Positions 13,887 to 29,705 are shown, counted from the first letter of the stretch. The stretch: 64,000 nucleotides of DNA from an uncultured Chloroflexia bacterium (GCA_963748625.1 CAVVJT010000003.1:160001-224000); one strand, 5' to 3'. Made by a program: numbers and translations. Notes: generated by a model not told the origin, from the letters alone.

Positions 13887-15551
13887 TTAGACCTCGACCA
13901 CCACGGGGAAGACCATCGGGCGGCGCTTGGTCTGCTCGTAGAGGAACCTGGACACGCCGTCCTTGATCTGGACCTTGAGCAGCGCGACCTCGGAGATCCG
14001 GTCCCCGGGCGCTTCGACAGCCTCGCGGATGCGCCGGATCGCCTCCTCGATGATCCGGTCCTCCTCGGGCCCGTGGACGAAGCCGCGGGTGATGATCTCG
14101 GGCCGCCCGACCACCTTGTTGGTCTGCTTGTCGATCTGGATGACGACCATGAACATGCCGTCGTTGGCGAGCGCGCGACGGTCGCGCAGGACGATGTCGC
14201 CCACCTCGCCCACGGACAGGCCATCCACGTACACGTAGCCCGCCGGGACCGACGCACCGCGACGGGCTGAGCCGTCGGCGAAGATCTCGATCGGCGTGCC
14301 GTTCTCGATGATGTACACGTTCTCCGGCGCAACGCCGGTGTCGATGGCCAGGCGGCCGTGCTGGACCAGCATCCGGAACTCGCCGTGCATCGGGATGAAG
14401 TACTTGGGCTTCGTGAGCCCGAGCATGAGCTTGAGCTCCTCCTGGCTGGCGTGCCCGGAGACGTGCGCCCGCTTGATCGTGTGGTAGAACACGTTGGCGC
14501 CGGCCTTGAACAGGTTGTCGATCGTGCGGGCCACGTACTCCTCGTTGCCGGGGATCGGGCTCGCTGAGACGATGACGGTGTCGCCGGGCTGGATCTCCAC
14601 GAACCGGTGGTCCCGGTTGGCCATGCGCGCCAGGCCGGCCATCGGCTCACCCTGGGCACCGGTCGTGGCGATGACGAGGTTGGGTGGCGCGTCCTTGATC
14701 CGGTCCTTGGAGACGATCGCAGACGGCTCGTACTTGAGGTAGCCGAGGTCGGTCGCGATCCGGAAGTTCTGCTCCATCGACCGGCCGATGACGGCGGTCT
14801 TGCGCTTCATGTCCGCGGCGGCGTCGAGCACCTGCTGGAGGCGCGCGATGTTCGAGGCGAACGTGGCGACGATCACGCGCCCATCGAGCGGCTCCATGAT
14901 CTCGCGGAAGGCCTCGCCGACGATCCGTTCGGACGGCGTGTAGCCCGGGTTCTCCGCACGGGTCGAGTCGGACAGGAGGCAGATGACGCCCTCCTCGCCG
15001 AGCCGCGCGAGGATGTGGAAGTCGGACAGCTTCCCGTCGACCGGCGTGTGGTCGAACTTGAAGTCACCCGTGTGGACCACGGTGCCCACCGGCGTGCGCA
15101 GGGCGATGCCCATCGCATCCGGGATGGAGTGGCCGATGCGGAACGGCACCGCGGTGAACGGCCCGATCTCCAGCTCGTCGCCCGGCTCCATCGCGATCAG
15201 CGGGTTGTTGTGGAGCTTGTGCTCCTTGATCTTGTTGCCCAGGAGTCCACGGGCCAGGGTGCTCGCGTAGACGGGCACGCCGGGGAACTCGGGCAGGACG
15301 TACGGGAGGCCGCCGACGTGGTCCTCATGGGCGTGCGTGATCAGGAAGGCCCGGACCTTCTCGCGGTTCTCCTTGAGGTAGGTGACATCGGGCACGACCA
15401 GGTCGATGCCGAACATCTCCTCGTCGGGGAACATGAGGCCGCAGTCGATGACGACGATGTCATCGCCGTACTCGAAGACGTACATGTTCTTGCCGATCTC
15501 GCCCACCCCGCCAAGCGGGATGATTCGGAGCGGTGTGCTGGGATCTGCCAT
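13887..15551 (-). CDS. rnj: Ribonuclease J
   Basis: PLGGVGEIGKN, THAHEDHVG, HTGDFK, HVSGH, PMHGE. Confidence 0.97.
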   Translation of the reverse strand: MADPSTPLRIIPLGGVGEIGKNMYVFEYGDDIVVIDCGLMFPDEEMFGIDLVVPDVTYLKENREKVRAFLITHAHEDHVGGLPYVLPEFPGVPVYASTLARGLLGNKIKEHKLHNNPLIAMEPGDELEIGPFTAVPFRIGHSIPDAMGIALRTPVGTVVHTGDFKFDHTPVDGKLSDFHILARLGEEGVICLLSDSTRAENPGYTPSERIVGEAFREIMEPLDGRVIVATFASNIARLQQVLDAAADMKRKTAVIGRSMEQNFRIATDLGYLKYEPSAIVSKDRIKDAPPNLVIATTGAQGEPMAGLARMANRDHRFVEIQPGDTVIVSASPIPGNEEYVARTIDNLFKAGANVFYHTIKRAHVSGHASQEELKLMLGLTKPKYFIPMHGEFRMLVQHGRLAIDTGVAPENVYIIENGTPIEIFADGSARRGASVPAGYVYVDGLSVGEVGDIVLRDRRALANDGMFMVVIQIDKQTNKVVGRPEIITRGFVHGPEEDRIIEEAIRRIREAVEAPGDRISEVALLKVQIKDGVSRFLYEQTKRRPMVFPVVVEV

Positions 15552-20187: not shown

Positions 20188-22482
20188 CTACCGGATCACG
20201 GTGAACGCGTCGATGTCGACGCGCGGACGATTTGCGGTGCCGAGGCACGTGATCTTCACCGTGTGCCTTGCTGACGTCGTCCACGACTTCGAGAACACGA
20301 TCCGCCGGTTCTGCGTGGAGCCGGCCCGCAGGTCGATGATGACGGGTGTGGCACCGTCGACAGAGACCGACGCCTTGCCGAGGCCGGTCCCCCGCATCGC
20401 GACCCAGGCGACAGCCCGTCCCGTGAATGCGAACGTGGCCGAAGCGCCTCGCGCGGTCGTGGCCCTGTACGACCCTCCGGATGCTCCCGTGGCACGGACG
20501 GTCTTCCAGGTCCCGCGCCAGGCGACCGCCGGGCTCGACTGCTGGCTCAGGAGCACACGGAACGTCGATCCGGGTCTGTCCGTGGAGGAGTTGGCCGCGT
20601 AGTCGGTCGCGCGGGACCGGAACCGGTACGTCCTCGTCGAGGATGCGGTGAGCGCTCGAATGACGGACGGTGTCACCGGGGACGACACGGTGACCCAGCT
20701 GCCACCGTTCGTCTGCTGCTGCAGCCGGTTCGCCTTGACGTTCGAGCCTGCGTCCGTGGCAGACCAGCGGACCTCGACGGGCACGGACGTCCGCCCCAGA
20801 ATTCCGCCAAGGTGGATCGAGACGCCTGGTGGGCCCACCGAAGGCAGCGTCTGGTCGGAGATCGGGATCAGTGCCGCGTCTTCCCAGTCTGCCGTGTAGC
20901 CGGCGCCGGACCAGTAGCCCGAGCGATACGGGGAGCCGAGCGGCGGGTCGATGGACAGCTTGTAGGAACCGCTGACAAGGCCGGATACGGTGAAGTTCCC
21001 GTTCGCATCCGTCTCGACGCCCCCGGGCCCAAACTCCCAGATCCCGCCAGACGACAGACCCGCGAAGACGCCGATCCCAGCGAGCGGCACGCCGCCGGGA
21101 CCCGTGACCCTGCCACTGATCGTGTTGCCGAGCGGGAGCACGATCGCGACCCCGCCGACGCTCGTGGTACCGACCTTCACCGGGATCGTGGCGTACGGGT
21201 CGGGGTTCGAGCGGCCGGCGGCATAGCCAATGACGACGTGATGCGCGGCGCCTGCCTGGATCTCGTACGACCCGGGGGGCACGTTGCGGACGGTCCACGT
21301 GCCGTCCGCACCCGTCACGGCACGAGCGCACCCGAGGTCCGGATCGCACGCGTTGAGCATCGCGTTGGCGACGGGCCCCGCAACGTCGCGAACCGTGCCG
21401 GACAGCGTCGGCAGCACGGGCAGGGCTGCTTGAAGCCCACTCACGTCACCCGCGGTGGTGTCGATCGCCACCCCCTCCGTGGACTGATCGACGAGGACCT
21501 CTCCGGGGCCGTTGTAGTTCCCGTACGGGAAGTTGCCGCCGAGGCTCTCCGGGACGGTGAACTGGAGGTGGTAGGAGCCCGGATACAGGCCCCTGACCTT
21601 GAACTCGCCGTCGGCATCGACCGGGAACAGGACGCTGGTCGAGGCATCGAGCGCCCGCACCTCGACCAGCTTGCCGGTCGCTCCTACGAGGGTGCCGCTG
21701 ATCGACCGGCCACGGGACAGCGTGATGTCCTGGTCCGTCAGGTCGGCCGCGACGACCTCATATCCCGTCGGCACGACCTCGCTGTCCTCCGCCACGACGA
21801 TGCCGTCAACCACGACGCCGCTCGGGAAGTCGCTGCCGTCGGGTCCGTAGACGCGCAGCGTGTAGGTGCCAGGCGTGAGGCCGACGACCTGGTAGTGGCC
21901 GTCGACGTTCGACGCGACCGACGAGCCGCTGACGGGCCCGTCCGCCGAGACCCACGCGCCCGGGACAGGGTCGCCCTCGGGGCTCTTCACGAGACCGGTG
22001 ATCCGAAGGCCATCGGCCAGGTGGATCTCGCGCCCGGCGACGTTCGCCGCGACGACGATCGAGACTGCGTCCGCCGGGTCCTGCGACCCGCCGGGCATGC
22101 CGATGTCCCACGCGCCGAACAGGTTGGTGCCCTCCGGGGCGAGCGCCTGGAGCAGATAGCTGCCATCAGGGACCGGCTGGATCGTGAACGTCCCGTCTGC
22201 TTCCGACACCCCATCGCCCCCGTCGAAGCAGTTGTCGACGGAGGAGCACAACCCCACCGAGGCGCCGGCGACCGGATTGCCGTGCGTGTCCATCACGATC
22301 CCGGAGACGGACAGGCCAACGGGGAGCTGCACGTTCTTGCCGGTCGCGCTCGCCGCGACGGCAACGGGGGGCGCTACCAGCGCCGCGGCCACCACGATGG
22401 CGACGGCTATCGAGAACATCGCCCGGATCGAGCCCCTCACCACGTCCCTCCCTCGTCCCGACCGAATCCGGTCCCGGGCCAC
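20188..22482 (-). CDS. Secreted protein with tandem carboxypeptidase-regulatory-like beta-sandwich repeats and a C-terminal FN3-like plus beta-sandwich module
   Basis: Signal-like hydrophobic N-terminus; repeated I(S/T)G.V..P.G.PV.GA...DG.Y...GL.PG.Y.L; start uncertain. Confidence 0.75.
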   Translation of the reverse strand: MARDRIRSGRGRDVVRGSIRAMFSIAVAIVVAAALVAPPVAVAASATGKNVQLPVGLSVSGIVMDTHGNPVAGASVGLCSSVDNCFDGGDGVSEADGTFTIQPVPDGSYLLQALAPEGTNLFGAWDIGMPGGSQDPADAVSIVVAANVAGREIHLADGLRITGLVKSPEGDPVPGAWVSADGPVSGSSVASNVDGHYQVVGLTPGTYTLRVYGPDGSDFPSGVVVDGIVVAEDSEVVPTGYEVVAADLTDQDITLSRGRSISGTLVGATGKLVEVRALDASTSVLFPVDADGEFKVRGLYPGSYHLQFTVPESLGGNFPYGNYNGPGEVLVDQSTEGVAIDTTAGDVSGLQAALPVLPTLSGTVRDVAGPVANAMLNACDPDLGCARAVTGADGTWTVRNVPPGSYEIQAGAAHHVVIGYAAGRSNPDPYATIPVKVGTTSVGGVAIVLPLGNTISGRVTGPGGVPLAGIGVFAGLSSGGIWEFGPGGVETDANGNFTVSGLVSGSYKLSIDPPLGSPYRSGYWSGAGYTADWEDAALIPISDQTLPSVGPPGVSIHLGGILGRTSVPVEVRWSATDAGSNVKANRLQQQTNGGSWVTVSSPVTPSVIRALTASSTRTYRFRSRATDYAANSSTDRPGSTFRVLLSQQSSPAVAWRGTWKTVRATGASGGSYRATTARGASATFAFTGRAVAWVAMRGTGLGKASVSVDGATPVIIDLRAGSTQNRRIVFSKSWTTSARHTVKITCLGTANRPRVDIDAFTVIR

Positions 22483-22609: not shown

Positions 22610-25195
22610 TTACTTGGCGAGGTGCCGCTGCATCGCAGCCTTGCGGCTGAGGTTCACGCGGCCCTGGCGGTCGATCTCGGTGACCACCACCATGACCTCG
22701 TCGCCGACGGACACGACGTCCTCGACGCTGGGCACGTGGTAGTCGGCGAGCTCGCCGATCCGGATGAGGCCTTCCTTGCCGGGCAGGATCTCCACGAAGC
22801 AGCCGAAGTTCATCAGCCGGGTGACCTTGCCGAGGTACAGGGAGCCGACCTCGACCTCACGGGTGAGGCTCTCGATCCACTGGATCGCCTTGCGCGAGTT
22901 CTCGCCGGAGACGGCCGCGATCTCGACGGTGCCGTCATCCTCGACGTTGATCTCGGTCTGGGTCTCCTCCTGGATCTTGCGGATCATCGACCCACCCTTG
23001 CCGATGATCTCGCGGATCTTCTCGGGGTTGATCTTGATCGTGATGATGCGCGGCGCGAAGTCGCTCATCGTCTCGCGGGCGGACGGCAGGACCTCGGTCA
23101 TCTTGTCGAGGATGTGCAGGCGGGCCGCAAGGGCCTGCTTGAGCCCCTCGCGGATGACCCGCTCGTCGATCCCCTTGACCTTGATGTCCATCTGCAGGGC
23201 GGTGATGCCCTCGGACGTCCCGGTCACCTTGAAGTCCATGTCGCCGATCGAGTCCTCCTTGCCGAGGATGTCGGTCAGCACCACGAAGTTGCCGGTGTCG
23301 CCATCGAGCACGAGGCCCATCGCAGCGCCGGCGACCGGCGCCTTGATCGGCACGCCCGCGTCCATGAGGGCGAGGGTCGAGCCGCAGGTCGACGCCATGG
23401 ACGTGGAGCCGTTGCCGGCCACGACCTCGGAGACGAGGCGGATGACGTACGGGAACTCCTCCTGCGACGGCAGGACGGGCAGGAGCGCGCGGGCGGCCAG
23501 GTTGCCGTGGCCGATGTCGCGCCGGCTCGGGCCGCGCATGGGCTTGTTCTCGCCCGTGCTGTACGGCGGGAAGTTGTAGTGGTGCAGGTACCGCTTCTCG
23601 GTCTCAGGGCTGATCGTGTCGATCCGCTGCACGTCCGAGGACGCACCGAGGGTGGCGACGGTCAGGGCCTGGGTCTGGCCGCGGGTGAACAGGCCCGAGC
23701 CGTGCGCGCGCGGCAGAAGGCCAACCTCGACCGAGATCGGGCGGACCTCGTCGGTGGCGCGGCCGTCCATGCGGAGGCCCTCGGTCAGCACGAGCTGGCG
23801 GACGGTCTTCTTCTGGACGAGGTTGAACAGGCTCTTGGAGACGCGCGCCTCGCGGCGGGCGGCCTCCAGCTTCGTCGCGGACGCGGCGGCGTCGCCCTTG
23901 ACGGCGCGGATCGCGTCGGCGATACCGGCCTTGAGGGTCTCGATCCGGCCCGGGAGGTCCTTGCCGAACCAGATGAGCAGGTTCGCGGTGGCCTCGGCGT
24001 CCGGCAGCGCGCGGTGGCTCTCCTTCAGCTCGACACCGAAGAAGTTGGCCAGGGTCGCCAGCTTGTAGTTCTCGAGGTCCGGGTAGCCCTCACGTGCGAT
24101 CACGAGCGTGTCAAGGTACGCGCCCTGCTCCACGCGGGTGCCGTCGGCGAGCGCCTCCTGGAGGAAGGCGATGTCGAAGCCGACCGAGTGGCCGACCATC
24201 GGCGCGCTGCCCACGAAGTCGAGCGCCTTGCGGGCAGCCTCGGCCGGGGCCATGGCGCCCTTGACGTCCTTGTCCGTGATGCCGTGCATCTGGTTGCCGA
24301 CGATCGGGCGTCCGGGGTTCACGAAGGTGGACCAGCGGTCGGTGATCTTGCCACCCTTGACGCGGACCGCGGCAACCTCGACGAGGTCGGCCATCTTCGG
24401 GTCCGTGCCGGTGGTCTCGACATCCACGACGACGAACTCGCCGCCCGCCTTCGCCAGTGCGGCGAACGTGAGCACGGAGTCGGTGTTGGGCTCGATGTAC
24501 GGCACGCGCTTGGGCTTGCCCACGAGCTCCCGGAGCTTCTCCTGGATCTCGATGAGCGGCACGAGCGCGCGGTGCCCGAAGAGGATGGCCTCGGCCATGA
24601 CGTCCTCGGGGAGGATCTTGACGCCCGCCTCGACCATCATGATGGCGTCGCGGGTGCCCGAGACGACAAGGTCGAGCTCGCTGTCCGCGAGCTGGGGGTA
24701 CGTCGGGTTGAGGACGAACTCGCCATCGATGCGGCCGACGCGCACGGCGCCGACGGGCCCCTGGAACGGGATCTCGCTGATGGTGAGGGCGGCGGATGCG
24801 GCGATGGTGCCGAGGATGTCCGGGTCGTTCTCGTGGTCCGTCGAGAGGACCGTGATCACGAGCTGGATATCGTCCTTGTAGCCCTCGGGGAAGAGCGGGC
24901 GGATCGGGCGGTCCGTGAGGCGCGCGGCGAGCGTCGCGGCCTCGGACATGCGACCCTCGCGCTTGATGAAGCCGCCGGGGATCTTGCCCGCGGCGTACAT
25001 CCGCTCTTCGAACTCGACCGTCAGCGGGAAGAAGTCGAGGCCGGGGCGGGGCTCGGACCGGTTCGCGGTACCGAGGACCATCGAGTCGCCGTAGCGCAGG
25101 GTGACGGCGCCGCCCGCGAGGCCGGCGAGCTTGCCGGTCTCGAGCGTGAGGGTGCGACCGCCGAACTCGATCTCGAGAGTGGTGGGAGTGGGCAC
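22610..25195 (-). CDS. pnp: Polyribonucleotide nucleotidyltransferase (PNPase, 861 aa) with an inserted DEDDh exonuclease domain
   Basis: AAGGAGGT SD plus GTG; PH1 (DFFPLTV, GKIPGGF, DRPIRPLFP), PH2 (RAHGSGLFTRGQTQ, HYNFPPYS, GDMDFKV), KH (IIGKGG), S1; follows rpsO. Confidence 0.97.
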   Translation of the reverse strand: MPTPTTLEIEFGGRTLTLETGKLAGLAGGAVTLRYGDSMVLGTANRSEPRPGLDFFPLTVEFEERMYAAGKIPGGFIKREGRMSEAATLAARLTDRPIRPLFPEGYKDDIQLVITVLSTDHENDPDILGTIAASAALTISEIPFQGPVGAVRVGRIDGEFVLNPTYPQLADSELDLVVSGTRDAIMMVEAGVKILPEDVMAEAILFGHRALVPLIEIQEKLRELVGKPKRVPYIEPNTDSVLTFAALAKAGGEFVVVDVETTGTDPKMADLVEVAAVRVKGGKITDRWSTFVNPGRPIVGNQMHGITDKDVKGAMAPAEAARKALDFVGSAPMVGHSVGFDIAFLQEALADGTRVEQGAYLDTLVIAREGYPDLENYKLATLANFFGVELKESHRALPDAEATANLLIWFGKDLPGRIETLKAGIADAIRAVKGDAAASATKLEAARREARVSKSLFNLVQKKTVRQLVLTEGLRMDGRATDEVRPISVEVGLLPRAHGSGLFTRGQTQALTVATLGASSDVQRIDTISPETEKRYLHHYNFPPYSTGENKPMRGPSRRDIGHGNLAARALLPVLPSQEEFPYVIRLVSEVVAGNGSTSMASTCGSTLALMDAGVPIKAPVAGAAMGLVLDGDTGNFVVLTDILGKEDSIGDMDFKVTGTSEGITALQMDIKVKGIDERVIREGLKQALAARLHILDKMTEVLPSARETMSDFAPRIITIKINPEKIREIIGKGGSMIRKIQEETQTEINVEDDGTVEIAAVSGENSRKAIQWIESLTREVEVGSLYLGKVTRLMNFGCFVEILPGKEGLIRIGELADYHVPSVEDVVSVGDEVMVVVTEIDRQGRVNLSRKAAMQRHLAK
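23965..24439 (-). other. DnaQ/PolC-like DEDDh 3'-5' exonuclease domain inside PNPase
   Basis: ExoI FVVVDVETTG, ExoII VGHSVGFD, LDTL, YKLATLA, ExoIII HRALPDA. Confidence 0.92.
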
Positions 25196-25283
25196 GAGCA
25201 AACGACCTCCTTGGTCGTGGATGGAGGGAGCGACCTCAGGCGGGTTGGCCTGGGCTCGCCGGGAAAGCAGGGCCGGATGCGAA

Positions 25284-25323: not shown

Positions 25324-25593
25324 TTAGCGGCGCAGTCCGAGCGAGCCGATGACGGCCCGGTAGCGCGCAGGGTCCTTCTTCACGAGATACGCGAGAAGGC
25401 GACGGCGCTGGCCCACGAGCTTGAGGAGGCCGCGGCGCGAATGATTGTCCTTCGGGAAGCGTCGGAGGTGTTCGGTCAGGTCCCGGATACGCTCCGTCAG
25501 GAGGGCGATCTGGACCTCGGGCGAACCGGTGTCGCCGTCCTTGACAGCGTACTCCGCGATGACCTCTTGCTTCTTCTCCCGCGCGAGCGGCAC
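25324..25593 (-). CDS. rpsO: 30S ribosomal protein S15
   Basis: [13 protein letters not shown]...[23 protein letters not shown]. Confidence 0.98.
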
Positions 25594-25709: not shown

Positions 25710-26705
25710 TCAGGCGACAGTCCGGCCCGCGGCTTCGAACAGACGCTCCAGGACCCGCATGTTGGCGATGGCATCGGCCATGGGTACAGGCGTGGGGTCA
25801 CCGTCGAGGACCGCCGCTGAGAAGGCGTCCACCTCGCATGCATACGGGTCGGCCGGCGCGAGCTCGATCACATCGGTCTGCCAGTCCTCAGGCGCGTTTC
25901 TGCCAGTCGTGACACGGATGCGGGTGGGGATCGTGGGCGGGATGTTGAACGGGATGTCGATCGCAATCCGGCCCGTCGAGCCGTAGATGTGGACGCGCTG
26001 GTCCGGCTCCACCCGCGTCGAGCAGGTGAACGATGCCACGCCGCCTGCGAAGCGCATCGTGCCTGAGGTCAGGACGTCCACGTCTGAGGCCGGGTCGACC
26101 ACCATCACCGCGGCCACCTCAAGCGGCTCAGCACCGAACAGGAGTCGCGAGAGGTTGACGTTGTAGCAGCCGATGTCGTAGAGCGCGCCGCCCCCCATGG
26201 AGCGGACGCTGCGGATGTCCAACGGATCGTCGAGGAAGTAGCTGAACCAGCTGTCGACCGCACGCAGCTCGCCGATGGCCCCGTCCGCCACCAGCTTGCA
26301 GGCCGCCTGCCACGAGGGATGGTGGCGGTACATGAAGGCTTCCATAAGCACCCGCCCGGTGGCCTCCGCCTCAGCCGCCATGCGCTCGGCCTCCGCCACG
26401 TTCAGGCCGACCGGCTTCTCGCATAGCACGTGCTTGCCGGCCCGGAGCGCCGCGATCGTCCACTCCGCGTGCAGATTGTTCGGGAGCGGGTTGTAGATGG
26501 CGTCCACGTCCGGATCAGCCAGGAGCTGCTCGTACGACCCATAGGCCTTCGGGATGCCGAGCTCGCCGGCCACGCGCTCCGCCGTGGCGGCATGGCGTGA
26601 TGCGATGGCCACGACCTCGGCCCGCCCGGCCCGGTGCATGCCCGGAATGACCTTCCCGGTCGCGATCCGCGCGGTCGAGAGCACGCCCCAGCGGAGAGTT
26701 TCCAC
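25710..26705 (-). CDS. Gfo/Idh/MocA family oxidoreductase
   Basis: [31 protein letters not shown]. Confidence 0.92.
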
Positions 26706-26796
26706 GCGTTCCTCCATCGTCCGTCCTGCCAGGGTCCCGATGATGCGGCCTGCCGCCGGATCGCGCTCGGTGGAGCACGGGGACGGTGTGTCGCGG

Positions 26797-27570
26797 CTAG
26801 GCGCCGAAACGGACCCGAACGCGGGATCCCGCCGGGACGGGTGGCACCACGAGCCGCCCTCCATCAACGAGCACGTCGACGCGATGCTCGCGCGTCCCGG
26901 TGTCGAGTGCCGCGGGCCACCGTCCGTCCGGTGGCAGCATCACCGGCAGCGGGAACGCCACGACCGTGTCCTCTCCCTCATCCTCGTCCCGACTGGCCAC
27001 CCCGACCACGGTGTGCGGCCGGCCCAGGAGCTCAGCAGCCGTGTCCAGGTCGCCCGCGCCGATGGCCGTGCGGACCTCCGTGCTGCGTACCGAGCGTCCG
27101 TCCAACGTGAACGGCGGCACCACCACCACGTCGAACCCCTGCTCGATCCCGAGCGCCGCGAGCGCCTCGGGCGTGCCCTCGCGCCGGTAGCCGAAGGCGG
27201 CGTCGGGGGTCATCAGGAAGCCGGCCACGGGCGCACGGTCGGCGATGGCCGCCAACGAAGTCCCGGTAGGTGGTCTCGCGCAGCCGCTGGTCGAAGTGGA
27301 CCACCACGGTCGCGGCAACCCCTTCCGATCGGAGACGCTCCAGGCGCTCATGTGGGTCGCACAGGAGCGGCGGCGCCTGGCCCGTGATCACCTCGTCGGG
27401 GTGGTGGTCGAACGTGACCACGACCGGGCGGGCGGCCCGCCTGCCGGCCTCGGCAACAAGATGCTCCAGCAGGTACGCGTGCCCGCGGTGGAGACCGTCG
27501 AACACCCCGACGACCACGAACACGGGTGACTCGCTGCGGGGAGGTCGGCAAGGCCGCGTGCGACGTCCAC
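26797..27570 (-). pseudogene. ribF: RibF-like FAD synthetase interrupted by two frameshifts (real or sequencing artefact); kinase domain degenerate
   Basis: MDVARGLADLP / GVFDGLHRGH..VTFDHHP / FGYRREG..VRSTEVRTAI..AAELLGRP alternate between frames; follows truB. Confidence 0.75.
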
Positions 27571-27573
27571 GGA

Positions 27574-28674
27574 CTAGGCCTCCCCGTCCCCCGCCGGAGA
27601 CGGCGCGGGGATCGGCTCGGCGACCGTTGGCGCCGGCAGGTCCGATGTCATGGGCTCCGCCGGCAGATCCGATGTCACGGGCTCCGCCGGCAGGTCGCCC
27701 GTTGGTGCCGGCGCGGCGGCGATCGGTCTCCCGCCCTCCGACGGCCGATCGACGAGAACCTTCTGCGGGTGGAGCAGCCCGCCCACCGCCCTGCAGACCG
27801 CAGCCACCTTGCCGTCCGGCGTCATCGCCAGCACCAAGGGTGCGTCGCGGATCTCCATCGGCGTCTTGGGGCCGGTCACAAGGCCCTCCCACATGCGGCG
27901 GACCTCGTCCCAGGTGATCCGGGCGTGCGGCAGATCCTCCAGGCCGGCATCCATGGGGCGCAGGGCCAGCTCGATGCCGGCAGGCCCGTCGGCAGCGTGC
28001 TCGCGCAGCTCGTCGAACGAGACGGCGTCGTCGGCTGTGAAGTGACCGGACGCCGTGCGCACGAGGGCGCCGAGATAGGCGCCGCTATCCAGGCCCTTCC
28101 CGAGGTCACGCGCCAGCGCCCGGATGTACGTCCCGGCGGAGCACCGCACGTCCACGACGGCGATTGGCCTGGCCGGGTCCGCGTCGTCCCACTCGAGCAG
28201 CGCCGCCTCCAGGATGACGACCTCGCGCGGCGCCAGAACAACCTCCTCGCCGCGACGGGCCATCTGGTAGGCACGCCGGCCTTCGACCTGTACGGCGCTG
28301 TACTGGGGAGGCACCTGCAGCTGGGGCCCGACCGATTCGCGAAGCGCCGCCTCGAGGGCCGCGCGGGTGACCAGCGGGCCGTCAACCGTCACGCGTTCGC
28401 CGTCGATGTCGTCAGTGGTGGACGTCTCACCGAAGCACAGCGTCGCCCGGTAGCGCTTGGGCATGCCCAGGTGGTACTCGGCGAGGCGGGTCGCCTTGCC
28501 CAGGAAGATCGGCAGCACGCCCGCGGCGAATGGATCGAGCGTTCCGCCGTGACCCACGCGGCGCGTGGACGAGAGCCTGCGCACGAGACCTACCACGTCG
28601 TGGGAGGTGGGACCGGACGGCTTGGCGACCACGAGGACCCCGTCGAGGCCACCGCTCCGGTCCCGCGGGCTCAC
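27574..28674 (-). CDS. truB: tRNA pseudouridine(55) synthase
   Basis: KPSGPTSHDVV, VGHGGTLDPFAAGVL, CSAGTYIRALARD. Confidence 0.97.
   Translation of the reverse strand: MSPRDRSGGLDGVLVVAKPSGPTSHDVVGLVRRLSSTRRVGHGGTLDPFAAGVLPIFLGKATRLAEYHLGMPKRYRATLCFGETSTTDDIDGERVTVDGPLVTRAALEAALRESVGPQLQVPPQYSAVQVEGRRAYQMARRGEEVVLAPREVVILEAALLEWDDADPARPIAVVDVRCSAGTYIRALARDLGKGLDSGAYLGALVRTASGHFTADDAVSFDELREHAADGPAGIELALRPMDAGLEDLPHARITWDEVRRMWEGLVTGPKTPMEIRDAPLVLAMTPDGKVAAVCRAVGGLLHPQKVLVDRPSEGGRPIAAAPAPTGDLPAEPVTSDLPAEPMTSDLPAPTVAEPIPAPSPAGDGEA
27632..27696. repeat. 27-bp coding repeat, about 2.4 copies, in the TruB tail (DLPAEPxTS)
   Basis: gccggcag(g/a)tccgatgtca(t/c)gggctcc read directly. Confidence 0.85.
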
Positions 28675-29705
28675 CGCCGGACCTCGCCTGCCAGGCGCTG
28701 CGCCACGTCGAGCACGACCGGGATCGCCGCCTCGAGCGGCAGCGGGACCGACGCCCCGGCCGCGCGCGCATGGCCGCCGCCACCGAAGACGCCCGTCAGG
28801 ACCGTGGCATCGACGCCGCCAGGCTTCGTCCGCACCGACAGGCGGGTGGCGCCGTCGGCATAGCCCTTGAACAGCATCGCGACCTCGGCGGCCTCCGCCT
28901 GCGCCAGCAGGTCGATGATCCCCTCGGAGTGGGCGCCGATGGCGCCGGTCGCGACCAGGTCCGCCTCGGTGAGGGTGGACCAGATGACCAGGTGGTCCTC
29001 GCTCGCGACGAGCCGGTCCAGCACCCGCCCGAAGAGGCGCAGCTGGGCGTCGGGCTTCGTGCGGTACAGGCGGCGCGAGATGTCGGACAGCGGGGCGCCG
29101 GCCTCGACGAGCGCCGCCGCCACGGCGAGCGTGCGTGGCGTGGTGTTCGGATGGGCGAAGGTGGCGGTGTCCATGACGACGCCGGCCATCAGCGCGTTCG
29201 CGAGGACGCCATCGTGCAGTCCGAGGGGCAGCCCGAGCCGGACCGCAAGCAGCGCGACCAGCTCGCAGGTTGCCGCGGCGTCGGGATCGATCCAGTCGAG
29301 GTCGCTGCCATCGTTGTTGGACGCGTGGTGGTCGATGATGACCCGCGGCAGCTTCGCGAACAGCTCCGCGTTCCGCTGGGCCACGTCGCCCACCCGGTCG
29401 GCGGTCGCACAGTCGCACAGGACCAGCAGGTCGTAGGCTTCGGCTGGATCGGGATCGCGGCGGAAGCGCTCGACACCGGCGATGAAGCCGTAGAGCGGCG
29501 GCACGGGGTCCGTCGAGATGGCGGTGGCCCGGCCACCCAGCGCCTCGACGAGATGGCAGATGCCCAGGACCGCGCCGAGGGTGTCGGCATCGGGATTCTC
29601 ATGGCTGACCGCGAGCACGTGGCGGGCACCGCGGATCCGCTCCAGCACGGGCGCCGGGACGGTCTGCATCGCGAGCCCGCTGATGTCCACGTGCTGGGGC
29701 CTCAA
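28671..29705 (-). CDS. nrnA: DHH family phosphoesterase (NrnA-like nanoRNase/pAp phosphatase)
   Basis: HENPDAD, IIDHH, DTATF, GGGGHARAAG; between rbfA and truB; start uncertain. Confidence 0.9.
   Translation of the reverse strand: MRPQHVDISGLAMQTVPAPVLERIRGARHVLAVSHENPDADTLGAVLGICHLVEALGGRATAISTDPVPPLYGFIAGVERFRRDPDPAEAYDLLVLCDCATADRVGDVAQRNAELFAKLPRVIIDHHASNNDGSDLDWIDPDAAATCELVALLAVRLGLPLGLHDGVLANALMAGVVMDTATFAHPNTTPRTLAVAAALVEAGAPLSDISRRLYRTKPDAQLRLFGRVLDRLVASEDHLVIWSTLTEADLVATGAIGAHSEGIIDLLAQAEAAEVAMLFKGYADGATRLSVRTKPGGVDATVLTGVFGGGGHARAAGASVPLPLEAAIPVVLDVAQRLAGEVRR

Follow-up and report, generated by a model that had tools for sequence, protein, structure and literature searches.

A polynucleotide phosphorylase with an internal DEDDh exonuclease domain in the class Limnocylindria

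Domain organization of the fusion protein

In a stretch of 64,000 nucleotides (nt) deposited as an uncultured Chloroflexia bacterium (GCA_963748625.1, CAVVJT010000003.1:160001-224000; hereafter the window), the gene pnp encodes a polynucleotide phosphorylase (PNPase) of 861 amino acids (aa) that holds a DEDDh exonuclease domain in its interior. The source organism belongs to the Chloroflexota, within the uncultured class Limnocylindria. Judged by domains and motifs, one polypeptide combines a complete phosphorolytic PNPase with a complete DEDDh (DnaQ-like) exonuclease, and the sequence evidence points to a genuine and conserved variant of a universal enzyme, one that seems not to have been described before and for which a mechanism is plausible. 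The lineages that carry the insert are those without the exonuclease-helicase DEDDh-DinG. It is proposed, with about even confidence, that the insert works as a hydrolytic 3'-5' exonuclease on a PNPase scaffold and is the successor to the lost DEDDh-DinG in work on RNA 3' ends.

The coding sequence of pnp, including the stop codon, lies at 22610-25195 on the minus strand, as do all features of the protein listed here, and was assigned to PNPase by TIGR03591 with 942.9 bits against a cut-off of 525. A preliminary description of the window, made from the sequence alone, had placed an 861-aa pnp at the rpsO-pnp locus, and the continuous frame, the neighbouring rpsO 128 nt upstream and the family assignment bear this out. 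The TIGR03591 match falls into two stretches with the insert between them. Pfam found two RNase_PH and two RNase_PH_C domains, RNase_T, a partial helical domain, KH and S1, and the order RNase_PH, RNase_T, RNase_PH, KH, S1 is the one that had been expected.

From the N-terminus, the protein begins with PH1, the first RNase PH domain (aa 1-230; 24506-25195), which was delimited by alignment and by Pfam RNase_PH with RNase_PH_C at 146-210. It is followed by a linker with a short helix (aa 231-252; 24440-24505), which stands before the insert, where the helical domain would have its first helix, and was set by alignment with insert-free PNPases of sister families and by a helix at 239-249 in an AlphaFold2 (AF2) model. 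The DEDDh 3'-5' exonuclease domain is an in-frame insert of 158 residues (aa 253-410; 23966-24439), recognized by PF00929, NCBIfam and PDB matches as well as in the AF2 model; the limits 24439-23965 given earlier were correct within one base. The remaining helical domain (aa 411-480; 23756-23965) is supported by PF03726 positions 28-80 at aa 427-479 and by DSSP of the AF2 model. PH2, the second RNase PH domain (aa 481-705; 23081-23755; Pfam), carries the phosphorolytic-site motifs, among them GNGSTSMAS and EDSIGDMDFK, which were located at the residues first reported. The KH domain (aa 716-775; 22871-23050; KH_1 E-value 3.6e-11, Pfam match at 718-775) and the S1 domain (aa 781-852; 22640-22855; E 1.1e-17) complete the protein, the latter ending 9 residues from the C-terminus.

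Pfam RNase_T (PF00929) covers aa 255-407 with 90.2 bits against a gathering threshold of 24 (E 2.8e-25), over model positions 1-164 of 164. All three exonuclease motifs stand at the residues named beforehand: FVVVDVETTG with Exo I (D258-x-E260; 24416-24424), GHSVGFD with Exo II (H336-S-V-G-F-D341; 24173-24190) and HRALPDA with Exo III (H394-x4-D399, with the "h" of DEDDh; 23999-24016). The helical-domain model PF03726 is matched at positions 28-80 of 81 only, with 24.6 bits, exactly at the cut-off; according to Pfam and alignment, the insert stands where the first ~27 positions would be, and the helical domain is shortened in that sense, as had been remarked. By these tests the protein is a PNPase in each respect but a complete helical domain, both score and motifs identify the insert as a DEDDh domain, and the incomplete helical linker marks a variant within the PNPase family and no exclusion from it.

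Distribution of the fusion

Among 41 relatives, an uninterrupted match to at least 855 of the 861 residues was found in 32, and the insert was seen in 40, single-contig genomes included. Eight of these 40 show it in genes that are split or cut by contig ends, and the one remaining relative holds the first 64 residues only. Two relatives have the pnp match in two adjacent pieces on one contig each, with query residues 1-392 and 390-861 in G014 (C1:377609-380193) and 5-374 and 394-860 in G034 (C31:1691-4200). The break lies inside or beside the insert and might be due to a frameshift, to faulty sequencing or to a gene that is truly in two parts.

The class was surveyed in 201 Limnocylindria genomes, of families coded f1 to f5, with aa 150-480 as the query, which covers both junctions; the counts take in eight genomes flagged as unpublished and the result is the same without them. 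Junction-spanning matches occurred in 61 of 61 f1 genomes (window genome included), 7 of 7 f2 genomes and 64 of 66 f4 genomes, respectively. The architecture, which the preliminary description had wanted sought in other genomes, is thereby present in 132 of the 134 genomes of three Limnocylindria families. No junction-spanning match was found in the sister families f3 (0/66) and f5 (0/1), and all five of the f3 and f5 genomes examined encode an ordinary PNPase of 736-750 aa with a clean alignment gap at the insert site. The architecture is kept even in streamlined genomes of 1.0-1.4 Mb. The window genome assembly, at 98.3% completeness and 7.74% contamination, amounts to 4.6 Mb, compared with 2.3-4.4 Mb in relatives of the same genus.

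Beyond the class, a sample of 301 Chloroflexota genomes gave a spanning match in all 33 of its f1, f2 and f4 members and in none of the 268 Chloroflexota from outside Limnocylindria, where the best E-value was 2.6e-30 versus 1e-84 or lower for spanning matches. One borderline Chloroflexota match (G340) was considered as a fusion and rejected, as it is an ordinary PNPase. In a collection of 5.8 billion proteins, PF00929 and PF01138 occur together in all 120 among the matches listed. A set of 1.84 billion representatives yielded 76 clusters at an E-value of 1e-30 or lower; among the matches listed these are mostly fragments of the insert-bearing PNPase family, and one full-length representative among the clusters listed has 864 aa. 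Sixteen further matches (10 multi-stretch and 6 others) were checked with Pfam, and no PNPase fusion was found among them. They are tandem DEDDh, BRCT, GIY-YIG, PolC, DinG, WYL and HTH proteins or bare DEDDh fragments, and another is a partial PNPase of ordinary type that lacks the exonuclease. In public annotation the insert-bearing proteins appear either as PNPase or as "DNA polymerase III epsilon subunit family exonuclease", a name that the Joint Genome Institute gives to many of them.

No public sequencing run contained more than 0.31 of the sampled words, and the bridging contigs come from relatives. Both junctions are bridged, with at least 31 bases on each side, by DNA contigs of two studies (X1 records 2 and 6; X5 records 26 and 28) and also by contigs of one RNA library (X16 records 17 and 21). 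An assembly chimera or frame artefact would find a foothold in the flagged 7.7% contamination of the window genome and otherwise in nothing. It can practically be discounted against the insert in 40 of 41 relatives, its presence in 132 out of 134 genomes across the three families and the independent DNA and RNA-library contigs over both junctions. That the junctions are not chimeric, a point raised in advance, is upheld by contigs of different studies and by the same frame in relatives.

Type and conservation of the exonuclease domain

The insert was matched in NCBIfam by "DEDD exonuclease domain-containing protein", PolC and DinG models with E-values from 1e-38 to 1e-31. The DnaQ-exonuclease/DinG-helicase model TIGR01407 scored 108.6 bits against a cut-off of 547.7, and neither DEAD nor Helicase_C_2 is present in the protein. 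By sequence, the 861-aa protein lies outside TIGR01407 and is alike in its exonuclease module alone. The model of PolC-type DNA polymerase III reached 124 bits against a cut-off of 873, with the exonuclease part matched only, and no Orn or RNase T model stood in the best 25 of 66 NCBIfam matches. Among PDB sequences the best matches were the PolC exonucleases 9qpc (E 9e-23) and 2p1j (E 2e-21); Cas2-DEDDh (8fy9/8fyc, E 7e-14) and DinG (8zef, E 2.4e-13) were matched as well. The DnaQ/PolC/DinG type that had been suggested for the insert agrees with both the NCBIfam and the PDB matches.

All 108 insert-bearing sequences have the metal-binding and general-base residues D258, E260, D341, H394 and D399, and the same holds for H336, F340 and the pair D362-T363. 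Identity over the junction-spanning region (aa 150-480) is 45-60% overall, falling to 45-50% between families. The ratio of nonsynonymous to synonymous substitution rates (dN/dS) was 0.144 in the exonuclease core over 66 pairs of 12 same-genus genomes; the same pairs gave 0.164 for PH1, 0.091 for PH2, 0.157 for KH-S1 and 0.32 for what remains of the helical domain. The exonuclease domain is under purifying selection by this estimate, at a strength comparable to that on the PH domains, and its invariant residues together with the selection indicate that it is probably an active exonuclease. In PH2, the residues S597, S599, R554, R558 and R559 are kept in 113 of 113 sequences and D648, D652, D654 and K656 in 112 of 113; work on E. 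coli PNPase assigns catalytic, phosphate-binding and metal-binding roles among these residues.

Dead domains usually lose their catalytic residues. A catalytically silent insert, acting as a structural or regulatory module, for instance by offering a docking site or by gating the nucleotide pore, is very unlikely because the five catalytic residues are invariant in all 108 sequences, despite 45-60% identity over aa 150-480, and dN/dS is 0.14. What such a module would explain is the replacement of the Exo II Asn by Ser in 85 of the 108, and it would suit the reported modulation of PNPase activity by the helical domain in the available text of PMC2723993.

Position on the ring

The AF2 monomer model has a mean predicted local distance difference test score (pLDDT) of 83.5 and a predicted template modelling score of 0.76. 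Within the insert, pLDDT ranges from 75 to 96 per ten-residue block and is mostly 84-96. A continuous helix is predicted at 396-431, in which the last exonuclease helix runs into the remaining helical domain. Foldseek comparison of the model with solved PNPases gave a best E-value of 7e-72 at a target TM-score of 0.75, and TM-scores of 0.68-0.87 among the matches listed. The PNPase chains among those matches all have 730 residues or fewer and none has a DEDDh domain. By alignment and model, the exonuclease replaces the first helix of the otherwise all-helical linker between PH1 and PH2.

The helical domain of E. coli PNPase is found on the side of the torus facing away from S1/KH, where it forms part of the wall of a lateral pore that reaches the active site; this pore is thought to carry the traffic of nucleotide and phosphate, as set out in the accessible part of PMC2723993. 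By homology, a trimer would hold three DEDDh sites on the distal face, beside the side pore to the phosphorolytic site, and the earlier placement of the exonuclease on the ring face opposite KH/S1 agrees with that structure paper.

This geometry would also allow RNA to meet two chemistries one after the other in a single chain, an exosome-like machine that would be the bacterial equivalent of Exo9 with Rrp44/Rrp6. S1/KH would capture the RNA and the PH ring would thread it, with phosphorolysis possible there; alternatively, the 3' end or a released stub would be handed to the three distal hydrolytic DEDDh sites, and decay would go on under phosphate scarcity or when PNPase stalls. Such a machine would have evolved by domain insertion in a lineage in which DinG was lost and no RNase R/II was found. 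It is considered unlikely.

Nuclease complement and loss of DinG

The nuclease complement was determined in 61 class genomes of at least 90% completeness (60 drawn plus the window genome). Most of them hold exactly one PF00929 domain, which in f1, f2 and f4 is the pnp insert and in f3 and f5 the start of a DEDDh-DinG frame of 890-1040 aa. A single PF00929 match was recorded in 13 of 18 f1 genomes (window genome included) and in 17 of 20 f4 genomes, with one more f4 genome having none, and all three f2 genomes have two matches, the second of ~190-206 aa. Helicase_C_2 (PF13307), the DinG helicase domain, was found in 19 of 19 f3 genomes and in the single f5 genome. Among insert-bearing families it was not found in f1 (0/18, window genome included) or f2 (0/3) and was found in 1 of 20 f4 genomes, where the match is a fragment of 255 bp at a contig end. 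The helicase part of an f3 DinG, used as a query, had no match in any of the five insert-bearing genomes searched. The pattern is one of a single gain of the insert and a single loss of DinG, probably on the same branch.

The f3 DEDDh-DinG gene (L036 855-3560, minus strand) has its Exo I motif upstream of the first in-frame ATG, GTG or TTG, which may reflect a non-standard start codon or mis-assembly. In f5, an in-frame TTG precedes the Exo I motif (L037 647-3400, minus strand), and the listing of open reading frames (ORFs) had set the start downstream. The window genome encodes two further DnaQ-like ORFs: a stand-alone DEDDh protein of 185 aa (C10:258319-258813; L024 1459-2016, minus strand) with epsilon-like matches below the cut-off, and a protein of 533 aa on C4 (L025 976-2577, plus strand) that matches PF00929 weakly and falls into no NCBIfam family.

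The RNB family (RNase R/II) was found in 0 of 61 class genomes, families without the insert included, and a control was positive in 11 of 14 reference genomes. In the window genome, RNase J and RNase Y are present, and no PF01612 (RNase D) domain and no RNase E/G were found; its decay set is Firmicute-like, minus RNase R. The loss of DEDDh-DinG alongside the gain of the insert, and the lack of RNase R/II matches in the class, were unforeseen in the preliminary description.

An NrnA-like gene with DHH (E 2.1e-13) and DHHA1 (E 1.3e-7) domains lies in the same operon as pnp (28671-29705, minus strand). A RecJ-sized DHH gene occurs in 61 of 61 class genomes, and a second, short NrnA-sized one in 57 of 61, with or without the insert; the other four have the long RecJ-sized gene only. 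These genes bear on the possibility that the three DEDDh sites form a built-in nanoRNase that finishes the 2-5 nt leftovers of PNPase. The DEDDh enzymes Orn and REXO2 do such work elsewhere, and an insert on the helical domain would sit on the exit face, beside the pore to the phosphorolytic site, by analogy with the E. coli structure as far as PMC2723993 was accessible. As the short DHH gene is present regardless of the insert, nothing needed replacing, and the insert is of PolC/DinG type, with no Orn or RNase T model among its best 25 of 66 NCBIfam matches. A nanoRNase function is thus improbable, and the earlier suggestion that the insert finishes oligonucleotides in place of Orn or NrnA is weakened. 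The insert was also considered as a substitute for a missing nanoRNase, and this was set aside as unsupported given the NrnA-like gene in the operon and the short DHH gene in 57 of 61 genomes.

Insert-free PNPases of f3 and f5 bear an Arg/Gly-rich C-terminal tail of 48-57 aa, and tails of 120-190 aa occur in some other Chloroflexota. All 11 of the insert-bearing PNPases examined end 11-22 residues past S1, so loss of the tail coincides with gain of the insert.

Phylogeny

A tree built from 95 DEDDh domains groups the inserts in a single clade (100/98), which divides into f4 and f1+f2. This is the pattern expected for a single insertion in an ancestor of the three families, followed by vertical inheritance. 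DinG exonuclease domains of the class itself group with those of other Chloroflexota. When the inserts were constrained with the class's own DinG domains, the tree was 30 log-likelihood units worse and was not rejected by the approximately unbiased test (p-AU 0.14); in an earlier comparison with a quick tree of lower quality, the constrained tree had come out ahead (p 0.80). These sequences neither establish nor reject descent of the insert from the DinG of its own lineage.

The tree of PNPase cores included five outgroup rows, one of which was a wrong ORF with a branch length of 8.19. In the published Limnocylindria phylogeny, P2-11E is basal, followed by QHBO01 and then by the sisters CSP1-4 and Limnocylindraceae (PMC13212565, in the text available). 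Genome sizes suggest that f2 is Limnocylindraceae and f1 CSP1-4; f4 would then be QHBO01 and f3 P2-11E.

Proposed function

The insert is proposed as an RNA-trimming successor because characterised DEDDh-DinG enzymes are 3'-5' exonucleases. Its catalysis would be phosphate-independent, and the PNPase trimer would serve it as a scaffold. The insert would trim those 3' ends that PNPase handles poorly or releases, such as short single-stranded tails of structured RNAs or of ribosomal RNA (rRNA) precursors. It would thereby assume the task of the lost DEDDh-DinG exonuclease-helicase, most likely RNA 3'-end trimming in decay and in rRNA quality control. Since no RNase R/II was found in the class, a hydrolytic partner for PNPase would matter. 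DinG of Listeria is reported to degrade single-stranded RNA (ssRNA) and single-stranded DNA (ssDNA) in the 3'-5' direction and to remove unprocessed rRNA precursors, its ATPase motif being dispensable (PMC12774634, available text).

The main rival is a role on DNA or R-loops, in which PNPase would be a scaffold binding single strands and the fusion a device of repair or replication stress and not of RNA decay. PNPase has a role in DNA repair according to the literature on B. subtilis and E. coli. The best matches of the insert, the PolC proofreading domain, DinG and the "DEDD exonuclease domain-containing protein" models, point in the same direction. The insert is also the sole PF00929 domain in most insert-bearing genomes (13 of 18 in f1 and 17 of 20 in f4, with two domains each in f2). 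DinG of B. subtilis prefers ssDNA, cuts the RNA strand of hybrids and removes R-loops, as described in the consulted portion of PMC12525004, and DEDDh-DinG, whose gene was lost from the insert-bearing lineages, is that type of enzyme. On the other side, the host enzyme, its operon and its S1/KH domains all belong to RNA metabolism, and the gap left by the lack of RNase R/II matches in the class is on the RNA side. DinG of Listeria and of S. aureus also cut ssRNA, according to the available parts of PMC12774634 and PMC12525004. A DNA role is rated as rather unlikely; nanoRNA finishing and tail editing are less likely than it. In tail editing, the exonuclease would trim or proofread the heteropolymeric 3' tails that PNPase makes in polymerase mode, and a polymerising site and a 3'-5' exonuclease would share one chain, as in PolC with its inserted DEDDh. 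PNPase synthesis is template-free, leaving nothing to proofread, and no comparative evidence speaks in favour; this role is judged highly improbable.

Several results weigh against the proposed trimming of RNA 3' ends by an insert that succeeds DinG. Exonuclease activity is a prediction from sequence, and at Exo II position 337 the canonical Asn is found in 23 of the 108 sequences only, Ser standing in the other 85, the window protein included. The closest characterised relatives of the insert are DNA enzymes, led by the PolC proofreading domain at an E-value of 9e-23, and B. subtilis DinG with Mg2+ leaves linear ssRNA uncut in the accessible text of PMC12525004. In the DEDDh tree, the sisters of the insert clade are small stand-alone DEDDh-WYL and DEDDh-HTH_40 proteins (100/91) and not the class's own DinG, and the PNPase-core tree does not separate the order of f4, f3+f5 and f1+f2. 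The coincidence of gain and loss is a single event in time and no statistical correlation. The distal-face geometry rests on homology with solved PNPases, and the RNA-library contigs are weak evidence for transcription of pnp, as RNA libraries can contain DNA.

Locus and neighbouring genes

The stop-free minus-strand frame that ends at 22610 is 1077 codons long, and the DNA is GC-rich. A GTG at 25195 is the start codon of pnp and is kept in 12 of 12 same-genus loci; a Shine-Dalgarno-like AAGGAGG (25206-25212, minus strand) was noted from the sequence 10 nt 5' of it. The gene for ribosomal protein S15, rpsO (25324-25593, minus strand; Ribosomal_S15 E 1e-35; start at 25593 inferred from the extent of the model), stands in the usual rpsO-pnp arrangement, with 128 nt between its stop codon and the GTG start.

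pnp is the last gene in the string nusA-infB-rbfA-nrnA-truB-ribF-(GFO/IDH/MocA oxidoreductase)-rpsO-pnp. The oxidoreductase gene (25710-26867, minus strand) lies between ribF and rpsO in an otherwise typical string. The next gene downstream of pnp (20188-22482, minus strand) encodes 764 aa, probably a protein that is secreted or exposed on the surface; CarboxypepD_reg-like domains recur in it, and a segment at its N-terminus is hydrophobic. A match to the C-terminal domain of RNase J was found in a 566-aa frame at ~13890-14192 (minus strand; E 2.8e-27), ~8.4 kb downstream of pnp.

Novelty and significance

PNPase is among the most conserved and best-studied enzymes of RNA decay, and no solved or described PNPase with a second catalytic domain was found. 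Full-text literature searches, judged by titles and abstracts with supplements aside, returned no description of a PNPase-DEDD fusion, in keeping with the preliminary description, which knew of none. In the text available of the Limnocylindria genomics paper (PMC13212565), "PNPase", "polyribonucleotide" and "exonuclease" occur 0 times each, a count that covers no supplements, which may list pnp gains.

The same paper, in its available part, reports Limnocylindria families at up to 30% abundance in soils and as common in freshwater. An abundant uncultured lineage has kept the exonuclease domain in its PNPase under strong selection; it has given up a stand-alone DEDDh-DinG, and no RNase R/II gene was found in it. 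If the insert is active, a phosphorolytic ring and a hydrolytic exonuclease merge in one chain, which would offer a natural experiment on the pairing of chemistries in the exosome, a handle on the cellular role of DinG-type exonucleases and a compact two-activity nuclease for biochemistry. That many such proteins are named after a subunit of DNA polymerase III is a caution for annotators.

Comparison with known systems

The fusion shares with the bacterial PNPases of E. coli, C. crescentus and S. antibioticus (PDB 7ogk, 4aim and 1e3h) the order PH1-helical-PH2-KH-S1, the rpsO-pnp locus and the PH2 motifs. It differs from them in the 158-aa DEDDh domain that replaces the first helix of the helical domain, and from the PNPases of sister families also in lacking their Arg/Gly-rich C-terminal tail. 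With the DEDDh-DinG enzymes of S. aureus, L. monocytogenes and B. subtilis (PDB 8zef) it has in common the kind of exonuclease, the N-terminal DnaQ-like DEDDh domain. The exonuclease of the class's own DinG is 37-43% identical to the insert and phyletically complementary to it within the class. The partner of the exonuclease is a helicase in DinG, whereas here it is a PH-ring phosphorylase.

PolC likewise holds its DEDDh domain within another domain of the host enzyme, and the PolC proofreading domain (PDB 9qpc, 2p1j) is the best sequence match of the insert among solved structures. The host of that domain is a templated DNA polymerase, and no polymerase domains are present here. Cas2-DEDDh fusions (PDB 8fy9, 8fyc) likewise recruited a DnaQ-like DEDDh domain by fusion for the trimming of 3' ends, but their host serves CRISPR adaptation and their substrates are DNA prespacers. 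Orn and REXO2 use the same DEDDh chemistry, at a step after PNPase; the insert differs from them in being of PolC/DinG type.

In the eukaryotic exosome, Rrp6 (DEDDy) sits on the cap side, whereas the hydrolytic nuclease at the far side of the ring from the cap is Rrp44 (RNB). Like the fusion, the exosome combines a PH ring, an S1/KH cap and a hydrolytic 3'-5' nuclease, and Rrp6 belongs to the same DEDD superfamily as the insert. The preliminary description had drawn a parallel to the exosome with Rrp6, of which the pairing of a PH ring with a DEDD nuclease stands and the position is imprecise; by analogy, the insert resembles Rrp44, opposite the cap, in position more than it does Rrp6. The fusion would differ from the exosome in a ring that is phosphorolytically competent by its motifs and in a nuclease that is of DEDDh type, covalently part of each protomer and present in three copies.

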